Shown in pieces: positions 1 through 63,514 of a stretch of 64,000 nucleotides of DNA (position 1 is its first letter; every line of letters begins with the position of its first letter). Origin of the DNA: an uncultured bacterium (GTDB taxonomy: Bacteria > Verrucomicrobiota > Kiritimatiellia > CAIVKH01); NCBI GenBank assembly GCA_903906425.1, contig CAIVKH010000238.1, positions 4,444 through 68,443 of the forward strand. Direction: 5' to 3'. The translations under genes were made by a program, and so were the position numbers. Below the pieces are notes generated by a model, which worked only from the letters and a program-made list of their open reading frames with translations, was not told the origin of the DNA and searched no databases.

Positions 1-296
1 TCCACAGATTGAACGAGCTTCTTGAGAAGCGTGGTGCTTTGGTGAAAGACGTAGTCGCAGATTTTCCCGATTTCCCGCAACTCGTCAAAGACAGCCGAAA
101 TTATTACACGCATTTTGACCCGAAGCTTCTCGCCAAAGGGCGGGTCGCTGAAAAAACTCAACTGGCACTTCTCATCCAAAGCATGAAGATCCTTTTGGAA
201 GTGCTATTCCTCTCCGACTTGGGAATTGGCGACGCGGCGATATCAAAAGCTAAGAGCCGGCGAGCATCGGTGATTCACTCCATTGGCGGCAGATGA
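1..296 (+). CDS. 3' fragment of a HEPN-domain (ApeA-like) protein; N-terminus lies upstream of the window
   Basis: Frame is open from the window edge to TGA 294-296. The tail reads ...QLVKDSRNYYTHFDPKLLAKG..., an R-x4-H (RNxxTH) HEPN-type motif followed by a helical Leu-rich C-terminus. Confidence 0.4.
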   Translation, partial: HRLNELLEKRGALVKDVVADFPDFPQLVKDSRNYYTHFDPKLLAKGRVAEKTQLALLIQSMKILLEVLFLSDLGIGDAAISKAKSRRASVIHSIGGR

Positions 297-367: not shown

Positions 368-471
368 GTTGCGGTGGGCGGGGCGGGCGGCGGATCAGGG
401 GCGCGCTTTTGGGGCAGTTTTCCGACGATTCTTGCGAAAATATGGCAAAACGGGCGGAATGTGGCGGTTGT

Positions 472-723
472 TCATGCGGTGTCCGTCATATTAGTAACGC
501 ACGATTGCACAGAAGCGATGTCCGTCGTCATCTCCGCCATTATTCCGGTCATCTTCACAATGATTCCGCTCGACTTGGCAATGATCACGCTCATCGTCGC
601 AATTAGCCCTGTCATGGTCGGAGTGAATATTGTCATCTTCTGAATGATTCTGGTTATATCAGTATTCGATCCGAGCATTGCATGAACGATCCTTGTCATG
701 GTAGTAATGCTCCCTGTCATGGA
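472..723. repeat. Degenerate tandem array, about 12 x 21 bp (consensus roughly cgcAATGATtCcgGTCATctt)
   Basis: Cutting 472-723 into 21-mers aligns AATGAT and GTCAT blocks in most units. The minus ORF 472..720 reads as heptads (MTGSITT MTRIVHA MLGSNTD ITRIIQK MTIFTPT MTGLIAT MSVIIAK SSGIIVK MTGIMAE MTTDIAS ...). The region is visibly AT-richer than its flanks. Confidence 0.8.
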
Positions 724-862
724 CGCCTCGTTTCCGGGCCTCGCCGAATTTTTCCCGGGCGTCGCCGGTGCGTCCGCGGTGGCGCGCGGTTTGATGGATG
801 GGGTCGCTCTCCCGCATTTCGCGGTGAGCGCGGAGGTCCGGATGGAGGACGAAAGGAATAGT

Positions 863-1189
863 ATGAGCGATGCATTGAGTAATCAGCCGGTCGTCGCGGT
901 TCCAGGGCTGGAACAGGCGCTGGGCGCGATCGACAGTTTGACGCGGTGGCGGGTGCTTTCGACGCTGGCGCTCGGCGAGGCGCTGCTGATCGTGGAGCTG
1001 TCGGAGAAGCTGGAGGTGGATCAGTCGGCGATGTCGAGGCACATGGCGGTGCTGTTTCGCGCGGGGATGGTGACGCGGAACCGGGCGGGGCAATACCGGA
1101 TTCCGCCGCAGTTCCTGAAGGAGCCGGGAAAGCGCGTGGCGGATTTCGGCCACTTCGTGCTGCGACTGGAGCCGGCGGCGGAAGAATGA
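863..1189 (+). CDS. ArsR/SmtB-family winged-helix transcriptional regulator (no Cys metal site visible)
   Basis: ...RWRVLSTLALGEALLIVELSEKLEVDQSAMSRHMAVLFRAGMVTRNRAGQYRI... is an ArsR-type HTH plus wing. ATG at 863 is preceded by ggaggac/aaagga. The track ORF 698.. is probably an N-terminal over-extension. Confidence 0.7.
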   Translation: MSDALSNQPVVAVPGLEQALGAIDSLTRWRVLSTLALGEALLIVELSEKLEVDQSAMSRHMAVLFRAGMVTRNRAGQYRIPPQFLKEPGKRVADFGHFVLRLEPAAEE

Positions 1190-11227: not shown

Positions 11228-11310
11228 TAATCAAATCAATCCCCAGCCTAATCAAACCAATCCCCGGCCTAATCAAACCAATTCCCGGCCTAATCAAACC
11301 GACTCCGACC
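11228..11310. repeat. Tandem repeat, about 4 x 21 bp (TAATCAAACCAATCCCCGGCC)
   Basis: Units at 11228-11248, 11249-11269, 11270-11290 and 11291-11310, with 1-5 mismatches. A weaker related unit lies just upstream. Intergenic. Confidence 0.9.
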
Positions 11311-20433: not shown

Positions 20434-22133
20434 GGATTTTTCTCCGCGTCTTTTCGGAACAAAAAGGCGCTGACATCGAGCCGCGGCTGCTTCGCGAACG
20501 GCGCGGCCGGAATCGCGGACACATCCAGCGGTTGCTTCCGCGCCGAGCAGAGCAGTACATCGCCGGAATTCATGCCGGCCCAAGTCGCGGCAAGTCCGTT
20601 CGTGGACACGGCGACGTCGCGATGCGCGTACCAGGCGATGATCGAATTATGCGGGCCGGAAATGATGAACCGCGGCGCGGCCCGGATCGCCGCACGATTC
20701 GATGCGAGGAGTTCGACAATCGCGTGGTCGGCATCAACGATCTGTTCGAGCCGCAACGCATGGATTCCCGTCGCAAAGGCCAGGACAGCGGCGCAGGCAA
20801 CCATCGGCGCGATGACATCGCAGCGGAAAAAAAGCCGGAACAGCGCGACCGCGGCAAGCACCGAAACAAACGCGCCGGCCCAACCGAAAACGCGCGGCCA
20901 GGAAATCGGGCATGCGAAAAACCATGCCGCGAAAATCAGGAAGCCGGCCACCAGCGCGATCAGGCAGAGCGCGATGAGATAGACGCGCGCGAAGCCGGAG
21001 CAAAAATCGCGGCGCGGTTTCGTCTTTTCCAATGATTGGAAGTTTGCGCGGCCGTCTTTTCCAATGATTGGAAGTTTGCGCGCGGCCTCCGCGAGCAGCC
21101 AGCCGGTCAGAAGCGCGGACGGGGCGAAGAGCAGGAGCGCGTAGTGATTTTGTTTGCTGCTCAGCGCGCTGAGGATCGCGAACGAGGAGGCGAGCCAGCA
21201 AAGGAGATAGAGCGGGCCGCGATGGTGGCGGAGTTTTTTTGCGGCGCCAAAGATCGCGACGGGCAGCGCGAGCGCCCAGATGCCCAGGCGCGCGGGCAGC
21301 GTCCAGACGTAATAAAATATTGGGCCTTTGTGCGCTGATTCGGTCAGCAGGCGGTTGATTTCGTCGCCGGCCTGCGCGTTCGTGTTCGCCGTTTTGAGCG
21401 CGACGGCGATGTACCACGGCGCGGCGATGGCAGCGCAGATGACTAGCGCGACGATGATGCCGCGCAAAGTGAGAGCCGCGCGATGAGAACGCGCGACGAA
21501 AATAAATGTCGCCACGGCAGCGATGGGCATGGCGACGGAGGCGGGGCCTTTGAACATGAATCCGATGCCTGAAAAAATTCCGGCGAAAATCCAATGCTTC
21601 AGGTTTCCTGTGCGAACGGTCAGCGCGGTGAAGATCGAAAAAATCGTGAGCGAACAGAACAGTGCTTGCGGGATGTCGGTCTCGGCGAGGCGGGCGTGAC
21701 GGAGAAAGCCGACGGATGTGGCGAGGATGATGGCGCCAACAAATGCGGCGCGGCGGCCGATCAATCTTCGCCCGAGAAAAAATGTCGCAAGGACAAATGC
21801 GGTGCCGGCAGCCGCGGAAATTGCGCGCGCGGCGGCGGCGCTTTCGGTGGTGCCGGCGGCTTTGAAAGCCGAGGCGACGAGCCAGTACATGAGCGGCGGT
21901 TTGCGCAATCGTTCCGCGCCCATGAAATGCGGCACGATCCAGCTTCCGCCTTCGGCCATTTCGCGCGCGGCAAGCAAAACGCGGAGTTCCTGCTGGCGCG
22001 AAACGGAGCTTGCGCCCAGGCCTGGCAGCAGCAGCGCGGCGCACAGTAGGATGAGAAATGCGGCGGCCAGCCAGTTGTTTCTGGCAAGTTTGGAAATTGA
22101 AAACATGTTCGCGAACGCGGACGTTGCGTGCAC
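20430..22133 (-). CDS. ArnT-like GT39/PMT_2 family membrane glycosyltransferase (paralogue A) carrying an in-frame P15 pair
   Basis: SRQQELRVLLAAREMAEGGSWIVPHFMGAERLRKPPLMYW and many TM segments. The loop ...AEAARKLPIIGKDGRANFQSLEKTKPRRDF... is encoded by P15 copies at 21027-21073. Confidence 0.8.
   Translation of the reverse strand: MHATSAFANMFSISKLARNNWLAAAFLILLCAALLLPGLGASSVSRQQELRVLLAAREMAEGGSWIVPHFMGAERLRKPPLMYWLVASAFKAAGTTESAAAARAISAAAGTAFVLATFFLGRRLIGRRAAFVGAIILATSVGFLRHARLAETDIPQALFCSLTIFSIFTALTVRTGNLKHWIFAGIFSGIGFMFKGPASVAMPIAAVATFIFVARSHRAALTLRGIIVALVICAAIAAPWYIAVALKTANTNAQAGDEINRLLTESAHKGPIFYYVWTLPARLGIWALALPVAIFGAAKKLRHHRGPLYLLCWLASSFAILSALSSKQNHYALLLFAPSALLTGWLLAEAARKLPIIGKDGRANFQSLEKTKPRRDFCSGFARVYLIALCLIALVAGFLIFAAWFFACPISWPRVFGWAGAFVSVLAAVALFRLFFRCDVIAPMVACAAVLAFATGIHALRLEQIVDADHAIVELLASNRAAIRAAPRFIISGPHNSIIAWYAHRDVAVSTNGLAATWAGMNSGDVLLCSARKQPLDVSAIPAAPFAKQPRLDVSAFLFRKDAEKNP
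21027..21073. repeat. P15 pair inside a CDS, 32-bp phase
   Basis: Perfect TTCCAATGATTGGAA at 21027-21041 and 21059-21073. Spacer gtttgcgcggccgtctt. Translated on the minus strand as PIIG...FQSLE. Confidence 0.95.
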
Positions 22134-56366: not shown

Positions 56367-56445
56367 TTCCAAGGATTGGAACTTTGCGCTGCGAAGTCCT
56401 CCAATGATTGGAAGTTTGCGCGGGCGGAATTTCCAATGATTGGAA
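56367..56445. repeat. P15 triplet, 32-bp phase
   Basis: ttccaaGgattggaa at 56367-56381, Ctccaatgattggaa at 56399-56413, perfect copy at 56431-56445. Spacers ctttgcgctgcgaagtc and gtttgcgcgggcggaat. Confidence 0.9.
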
Positions 56446-59409: not shown

Positions 59410-59521
59410 TTCCAACCATTGGAAAATCCCGGCGCGCAAACCTCCAATCATTGGAGAAATCCGGCGCACAGATTTCCAACCATTGGAAACTTTCGGGTGC
59501 GATGGTTTCCAATCATTGGAA
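59410..59521. repeat. P15 quadruplet, 32/32/33-bp phase
   Basis: ttccaaCcattggaa at 59410-59424, Ctccaatcattggag at 59442-59456, ttccaaCcattggaa at 59474-59488, perfect copy at 59507-59521. Confidence 0.9.
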
Positions 59522-63467: not shown

Positions 63468-63514
63468 TTCCAATGATTGGAACTTTGCGCCCCCGCAATT
63501 TCCAATCATTGGAA
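63468..63514. repeat. P15 pair, 32-bp phase
   Basis: Perfect copies at 63468-63482 (G) and 63500-63514 (C). Spacer ctttgcgcccccgcaat. Confidence 0.95.

Follow-up and report, generated by a model that had tools for sequence, protein, structure and literature searches.

The subject of this study is a tandem array of 21-base-pair (bp) units at positions 472..723 of a 64,000-nucleotide (nt) stretch of bacterial DNA (contig CAIVKH010000238.1, positions 4,444 to 68,443), referred to below as the window. The source is a Kiritimatiellia genome of the Planctomycetes-Verrucomicrobia-Chlamydiae (PVC) group, with ~60% GC, assembled from lake-water metagenomes. Read along the forward strand, the gene order is the 3' end of an ApeA-type gene, a pair of copies of a 15-bp palindrome that we call P15, the array, an ArsR/HTH_5-type gene and a GT4 glycosyltransferase gene. 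Opposite the array, on the minus strand, lies an open reading frame (ORF). The features at the locus are as follows.

3..296, plus strand: 3' end of a HEPN ApeA-type gene, convergent with the minus-strand ORF; 465 amino acids (aa) in the public contig
321-335 and 353-367, no strand assigned: P15 pair, two perfect copies of TTCCAATGATTGGAA, with a 32-bp spacing, in the gap that separates the ApeA gene from the ORF
430..457, no strand assigned: conserved block GATTCTTGCGAAAATATGGCAAAAC, situated 15-40 nt past the stop codon of the ORF
472..723, no strand assigned: tandem array of 12 units, each of 21 bp and all in exact register, with ACGATGACAGGGATCATTGCT as the consensus on the minus strand
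472..720, minus strand: 82-codon ORF (ATG 720-718, TGA 474-472), ~11.7 heptads with the consensus M-T-G-h-I-x-p
724..765, minus strand: degenerate, GC-rich units 13 and 14 (724-744 and 745-765), which continue the 21-bp register and form the 5' leader of the ORF
766..862, no strand assigned: rest of the intergenic DNA from which the ORF and the regulator diverge, the presumed promoter location
800-817, no strand assigned: conserved block GGGGTCGCTCTCCCGCAT, identified by haplotype alignment (window against L054, see below)
863..1189, plus strand: ArsR/HlyU-like winged-helix regulator, 108 aa, divergent from the ORF

The array is real and non-random. The mean pairwise identity of its units is 0.475, compared with 0.253 ± 0.012 (maximum 0.296) in 1000 shuffles, and its self-identity reaches 0.53, 0.47 and 0.48 at lags of 21, 42 and 63, against 0.15-0.33 at other lags. 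Tandem Repeats Finder (TRF) detected the best-kept core alone (528-603). Because the 21-bp register runs on through 724-765, the array comprises ~14 units in total. Units 13 and 14 match the consensus at 11-12 of the 21 positions (background probability of 11 or more, 0.007), and in unit 13 the pentamer ATGAC is replaced by GAGGC.

On the minus strand the consensus unit reads ACG ATG ACA GGG ATC ATT GCT, which translates as T-M-T-G-I-I-A. The ORF starts in unit 12, counting from its own stop, and its product is a run of unbroken heptads containing 17 Thr, 13 Ile, 10 Met and a single Cys. A GAGG sequence, the core of a Shine-Dalgarno (SD) site, lies at 729-726, inside unit 13 and 5 nt upstream of the ATG; SD cores stand ahead of 9 of the 24 first ATGs of likely genes in the window, against a background of 8.6%. 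A preliminary description of this DNA had reported the 12-unit array, the 82-residue heptad frame with its ten Met residues, the GAGG before its ATG, a divergent ArsR-type gene at 863 and a neighbouring P15 pair, and each of these stands. It had also taken the frame to span the array exactly; in fact, two more units lie upstream of the ATG.

Conservation of the array between two haplotypes

The comparison rests on two haplotypes, that of the window and a second one, L054 (from ENA; L056, from JGI, is identical to it). A metagenome scan anchored on the regulator gave a single find, a copy identical to L054. The window haplotype was present in six lake or freshwater runs from three studies, and since all six show 0 differences, they provide no usable population variation. 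The synteny of L054 is that of the window, with the ApeA tail, the P15 pair, the array, the regulator and the glycosyltransferase in the same arrangement. Nucleotide identities between the two haplotypes, with the ratio of nonsynonymous to synonymous substitution rates (dN/dS), are:

ApeA tail: 82%, dN/dS 0.13
Regulator: 93% (94% at the aa level), dN/dS 0.19
Glycosyltransferase: 86%, dN/dS 0.14
Intergenic flanks: 75-80%
Array: 74.6%, dN/dS 0.99

Within the array there are 64 substitutions in 252 nt and zero indels. L054 keeps the 82-codon minus-strand frame together with its ATG, GAGG and TGA, and the remaining five frames of the array contain stops in at least one haplotype. The best-conserved stretch between the haplotypes is 703-745, which is nearly identical and spans the GAGG leader, the ATG and the opening heptad. 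Indels in the history of the array can be excluded, because the 12 units hold exact register though they are only ~50% alike. The preliminary description had proposed conservation and the pattern of synonymous change in related genomes as a check on coding. In L054 the outcome was divided: the retained frame and the lack of indels speak for coding, and the dN/dS of 0.99 speaks against it.

The constraint on the array is narrow: a single pentamer is held in each 21-bp unit, and the register is kept exact. Orthologous differences were found at 5 of 48 positions in ATGA (the Met codon and the first base of the Thr codon), compared with 59 of 204 at the other unit positions. When orthologous heptads are compared, the two haplotypes share Met in 9 of 12 cases and Thr in 10 of 12, whereas each of the five remaining positions agrees in 3-6 of 11-12 cases, near the neutral expectation. 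The periodic Met is kept in 9 and 10 of the 12 units in the two haplotypes, where 3.8-4.2 would be expected after 64 neutral substitutions (P < 0.001).

Some features of the substitutions follow the codons. When per-position rates were preserved in simulation, the BLOSUM sum of the observed replacements was -10, compared with -27 to -28 ± 8 (P = 0.013-0.023), and replacements were more conservative than simulated in the minus-ORF frame only. At the last heptad position the middle base of the codon is invariably C or A, and at position 6 it is mostly C, beside first or third bases that vary at random; of the four unit positions that are least conserved, three fall on third codon bases. The GC content of the ORF is highest at third codon positions (GC3 0.61), followed by second (GC2 0.48) and first positions (GC1 0.32).

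The minus-strand frame as a small gene

The mean hydropathy of the product by heptad position is +2.2, -0.8, -0.7, +1.6, +2.9, -0.2 and -2.0. This pattern fits the a/d/g core of a coiled coil, with Ile at a, Met at d and a frequently hydrophobic g. The grand average of hydropathy (GRAVY) is +0.6 for the window product and +0.4 to +0.6 across haplotypes; the maximum over 19 residues is 1.67 in the window and 1.45 in L054, and charged residues number 9 in the window product and 3 in that of L054. AlphaFold2, given the two-sequence alignment, predicted one continuous helix over residues 2-81, with a mean confidence (predicted local distance difference test, pLDDT) of 91.5. Another stop-free frame of the L054 array, run as a control from a single sequence and so not under the same conditions as the two-sequence test, reached a pLDDT of 45. 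Direct reading of the product N-terminus, MTGSITTMTRIVHAMLGS, revealed no lipobox, and the product has no Pfam LPP match. The ENA gene caller annotates the minus strand in L054, as a 75-aa product that begins at the second ATG.

Taken together, these results suggest that the array most likely forms the body of a minus-strand gene (720..472) that encodes a small protein and is restricted to this lineage. We give this reading a probability of about 60%, and regard the evidence for coding as moderate.

The array, the conservation of the ORF in one relative, the position-specific constraint and the helix prediction are direct results; the expression of such a gene, its oligomerisation, its regulation by the neighbouring gene and its cellular role are inferred. 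The gene would have arisen by amplification of a 21-bp (seven-codon) unit. Its transcription would diverge from that of the ArsR/HlyU-like regulator, the 142-bp region that they share is probably under the control of this regulator, and the transcript would end at or before the P15 pair. Translation would begin at the conserved ATG, 5 nt past the conserved GAGG in a degenerate upstream unit. The 82-residue product is envisaged as a single long alpha-helix, a rod of ~12 nm with an Ile/Met core, in which each heptad has Ile or Val in position a and Met in position d, with g often hydrophobic as well; the remaining residues would be small, uncharged and polar (Thr, Ser, Ala and Gly). Self-association of the coiled-coil type would therefore be expected from heptads with a hydrophobic a/d (and g) core, possibly at a membrane or interface. 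Selection would hold the Met-Thr dipeptide, the heptad register and the amphipathic pattern, leaving the other residues nearly free.

Several results weigh against this interpretation. First, the dN/dS of the ORF is close to 1 and its differences are spread evenly over the codon positions (24, 21 and 19). The array has diverged (25%) just as far as the intergenic DNA on either side of it (20-25%), as in near-neutral drift outside ATGAC. Thus, the dN/dS clearly below 1 that protein-level purifying selection should leave was not found, and constraint is confined to the Met-Thr codons in a comparison of only two haplotypes. Second, the frame, start and stop would together survive 64 neutral substitutions with P = 0.06-0.08, and in arrays simulated from the unit matrix the minus frame was open 27% of the time; for these reasons, an open frame alone is weak evidence. 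The replacement test also lost significance when substitutions were placed uniformly (P = 0.11-0.16). Third, conservation extends to unit positions 15 and 18, both of them third codon positions, and the T found at 18 opposes the GC3 bias of the genome. Fourth, 43% of the product is made up of beta-branched residues plus Gly, which is unusual for a helix. Finally, the public caller did not call the minus ORF on the window's contig, and none of the sequencing runs that carry the stretch is an RNA run.

Homology searches point the same way. The preliminary description had suggested searching for homologues of the 82-aa translation, and the libraries searched yielded neither a family nor a homologue. 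The peptide matched no Pfam, NCBIfam or PADLOC family and no PDB structure. A word-index search of 5.8 billion clusters, with the ORF alone or as a two-sequence profile, returned no relative; tblastn against phage and plasmid records, and a scan of viral contigs, found no homologue; and a cluster look-up gave nothing useful. The only match by phmmer, among 1.84 billion representatives, was a eukaryotic C-type lectin (P0001; 503 aa, Pfam Lectin_C), whose neck contains more than 30 E-M-T-G-K-V-E heptads. Since the alignment is possible at many offsets, this match reflects repeat register and not descent, and the resemblance is apparently convergent rather than homologous. The lectin neck has an identical heptad signature, M-T-G-x-[IV]-x-x, and so shows that M-T-G-x-[IV] heptads exist in a real helical neck. 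However, its other heptad positions are rich in Glu and Lys, and it belongs to a secreted eukaryotic protein.

The closest known systems for a coding array are stand-alone prokaryotic small coiled-coil proteins with 21-bp repeats, that is, uncharacterised heptad-array ORFs for which Lpp is the structural archetype. As in these, the gene body here is a 21-bp array encoding unbroken heptads with hydrophobic a and d positions, the product is a single long predicted helix, and the gene would be a lineage-specific accessory gene unlinked to the pathways of its neighbours. There are nevertheless clear differences. The ORF here lacks a detectable homologue or family; its product has a near-uncharged surface (Thr, Ser, Ala and Gly), whereas theirs is rich in Glu and Lys; Met is specifically kept at d and Thr at e; the units are ~50% identical and fixed in number, whereas theirs are near-identical and variable in number; and dN/dS is ~1. 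Unlike Braun's lipoprotein Lpp, the product also has no signal peptide or lipobox.

A constraint limited to Met-Thr is unusual among small heptad-repeat proteins born of 21-bp arrays. If the ORF is real, it would be an unusual addition, uncharged and rich in beta-branched residues, to the poorly understood small bacterial proteins that originate by 21-bp tandem amplification. It would then represent a natural experiment on the minimum needs of a helical repeat protein, with selection visible on Met-Thr and register only, and might also be a Met-ladder metal or redox binder.

Other explanations for the array

The preliminary description had offered two readings, a heptad protein or a protein-binding array, and both survive: coding is favoured by the conserved ORF, the replacements and the helix, and weakened by the dN/dS of ~1 and the lack of a homologue. 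The second reading, which we consider possible but distinctly less probable than coding, is a non-coding docking array. Here 12-14 ATGAC/GTCAT cores (with weaker CAT(T) and a flanking C) would be presented on one helix face for cooperative protein binding, and the ORF would be a by-product. The likeliest binder, as a candidate, would be the 108-aa ArsR-like protein encoded 142 bp away, and the complex might autoregulate, silence or mark the locus. In favour of such a model, purifying selection is clear for the ATGA(C) pentamer only, and the rest changes at the intergenic rate, with dN/dS ~1. Unit positions 15 and 18, although third codon positions, are conserved as strongly as second positions. 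The information summed over a unit, ~14-16 bits, is like that of a transcription-factor site, the exact spacing of 21.0 bp (two turns) suits helical phasing, and arrays of this type often contain an open frame (27-46% in simulation).

A precedent exists in the type III partition centromeres, which lie upstream of a gene for a ~10-kDa winged-helix protein, extend over 130 to more than 350 bp and consist of 5-bp iterons such as TTGAC (PMC6009700). In TubR-tubC the repeats double as operator (PMC6009700). The present locus resembles that system in having a direct-repeat array of ~250-300 bp with pentamer cores directly upstream of a gene for an ~11-kDa protein of ArsR-like winged-helix fold, the distance from array end to regulator start being 98-142 bp. 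Should the array prove to be a docking platform, it would amount to a plasmid-centromere analogue on the chromosome, lacking TubZ and lying beside a defence gene.

However, the likeness to TubR-tubC is incomplete. There is no TubZ, TubY or other partition gene here, the next gene downstream being that for the chromosomal GT4 glycosyltransferase; a PDB comparison of the regulator gave no TubR match at E <= 1; the setting is chromosomal and adjoins a defence gene; and a conserved ORF, complete with start, SD and stop, runs through the array. More generally, a docking array would demand a series of joint coincidences, namely a frame open in both haplotypes, an ATG with its GAGG, conservative replacements, amphipathic heptads and a predicted helix. 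Units 13 and 14 lack the ATGAC core and yet are the best conserved between haplotypes, and a search of 380-900 found neither the inverted repeats that usually mark ArsR operators nor other operators. Whichever of the two holds, the locus illustrates how hard it is to separate coding from non-coding function when a DNA motif and a codon repeat share a period.

It is improbable, in our estimation, that the array is merely a minisatellite in decay and without function, left by an old tandem duplication and drifting neutrally, in which the ORF and heptads are accidental. The dN/dS of ~1, a divergence equal to that of the flanks and the lack of homologues are what such an element would show. Nevertheless, the periodic ATG is kept far above the neutral expectation, which indicates that the array is not decaying freely. 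Information content is also uneven over the unit positions (0.03-1.75 bits), and the 12 units, at ~50% identity, are free of indels, whereas the adjacent intergenic DNA has one of 38 bp.

A variant of the coding interpretation, which we regard as a long shot, holds that the conserved feature is Met itself and not hydrophobicity. The residue at d is Met in 19 of the 24 units, though a single base change gives Leu, Ile or Val. The 9-10 Met residues of the d layers in a parallel trimer or tetramer would then stack as thioether rings, and this ladder might buffer soft metals (Cu+ or Ag+) or oxidants under the control of the divergent ArsR-like repressor. The proposed rings may be likened to the Met triads contained in the copper pore of Ctr1. 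If true, the rod would be a Met analogue of the SmtA/SmtB metallothionein module.

The smtA-smtB locus of Synechococcus (PMC4353254, PMC8790569) is similar in that the gene for a small protein, rich in a potential soft-metal ligand, is divergent from the gene for an ArsR-like regulator ~100-140 bp away. In contrast to that system, the ligand here would be the Met thioether and not Cys (the ORF product has 10 Met residues and a single Cys), the product matches no metallothionein family, and the regulator is without Cys or a recognisable metal site and falls below the NCBIfam metalloregulator cut-off.

We think it very unlikely that the real gene is a hydrophobic mini-ORF of 41 aa on the plus strand (518-643). 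It is called in the public annotation of the window's contig, and a start codon occupies the orthologous position (ATG in the window, GTG in L054). However, its end differs between the haplotypes (41 versus 48 aa), its frame has two stops within the array in each haplotype, and its replacements are more radical than random (P = 0.96-0.99).

Least credible of all is the proposal, raised in the preliminary description because units 5 and 9 share the 7-mer AATGATT with the P15 pair ~105 bp from the array, that the array derives from P15 or acts as a half-site sink for it: its best matches have 5 mismatches to the 15-mer (equalled in 28% of shuffles) and 3 to the 11-mer core (equalled in 41%), no match to the 15-mer with <=2 mismatches occurs in 472-765, and P15 copies form genome-wide pairs spaced 32 bp apart, never 21-bp arrays.

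Four further candidates were rejected. A structured RNA is unlikely in view of the lack of an Rfam match at the array (the sole hit is sub-threshold and lies inside the regulator gene) together with folding z-scores of -0.8 and -0.3. Tandem Pho boxes would require two CNGTCAT motifs per 22 bp, where the array has one per 21 bp. A Thr/Ile/Met attenuator leader peptide is excluded, since 82 codons are far too long and there is no downstream gene. A transposon end or iteron replication origin is likewise excluded, as the public gene list contains no transposase or Rep gene.

The regulator, P15 and the surrounding DNA

The 108-aa regulator scores 28.5 bits against Pfam HTH_5 (cut-off 22) and 46.2 bits against NCBIfam HTH_metalloreg, under the cut-off of 55. 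Its PDB matches are MarR, HlyU, CadC and other ArsR-family members, the nearest solved relatives being MarR and HlyU. Direct reading of its potential metal ligands found no Cys, His60 and His97 as the only His residues, and no recognisable alpha3N or alpha5 site; the arrangement D94-x2-H97-x5-E103 differs from the canonical DxHx10Hx2E site.

Public gene calls at the locus disagree between the two haplotypes. On the window's contig, the caller reports the 41-aa plus-strand ORF and an over-long regulator of 163 aa that starts at 698, inside the array. This N-terminally extended form, in frame with the plus strand of the array, is ruled out by an in-frame TGA upstream in L054; every stop in the extension frame is a standard TGA, a codon that also terminates genuine genes in this DNA. 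Because L054 has a stop within the extension, 863 is the true start, where a conserved ATG is accompanied by an AAGGA motif, and the 108-aa form is likely. In a sediment metagenome run (X7), a 165-bp contig over window positions 957-1121 represents a third regulator allele, with 7 differences; this contig does not cover the array.

P15 is abundant in the window. Allowing <=2 mismatches to TTCCAATGATTGGAA, there are 87 strand-matches against 0.12 expected, corresponding to ~44 occurrences, and the contig depth of P15 in the source metagenome is ~100x that of its flanks. The copies occur mostly as intergenic pairs with starts exactly 32 bp apart (for example 321-367, 2450-2496, 21027-21073 and 63468-63514), and the loci 56367-56445 and 59410-59521 have 3-4 copies. 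Since each copy is self-complementary, the pair beside the array can form a 15-bp stem on either strand, and a bidirectional terminator is a possible role for it. The orthologous pair in L054 (300-360) is degenerate, reading TTCCAATGCTTGGAA and ATCCAATGACTGGAA, so individual P15 copies are not strongly conserved, though the family is abundant.

The ApeA-type gene has a GC3 of 0.55, compared with 0.82-0.84 in neighbouring genes. Next after the regulator is the GT4 glycosyltransferase gene (Pfam Glycos_transf_1), and other Kiritimatiellia have this glycosyltransferase without the array. We examined 52 PVC loci anchored on the glycosyltransferase (<=70% identity), and these were without ApeA, array or regulator; the ApeA-array-regulator segment is therefore lineage-specific. 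The low GC3 of ApeA, combined with the absence of all three elements from these related loci, suggests that they form a horizontally acquired defence islet.

A scan of the locus for sigma-70 consensus promoters and terminators gave no match. Between the P15 pair and the array, the haplotypes differ by a 38-bp indel (L054:367-404, between window positions 378 and 379) that contains the hairpin CCGGCTGAAGCCGG. The GATTCTTGCGAAAATATGGCAAAAC block (430-457) is near-invariant between haplotypes amid intergenic DNA of 80% identity and is partly palindromic (TTGC...GCAA). Elsewhere in the window, a second 21-bp tandem repeat, TAATCAAACCAATCCCCGGCC, occupies 11228-11300 in a 470-bp intergenic gap, with 3.5 copies at 90% matches; its sequence is unrelated to that of the array at 472-723.

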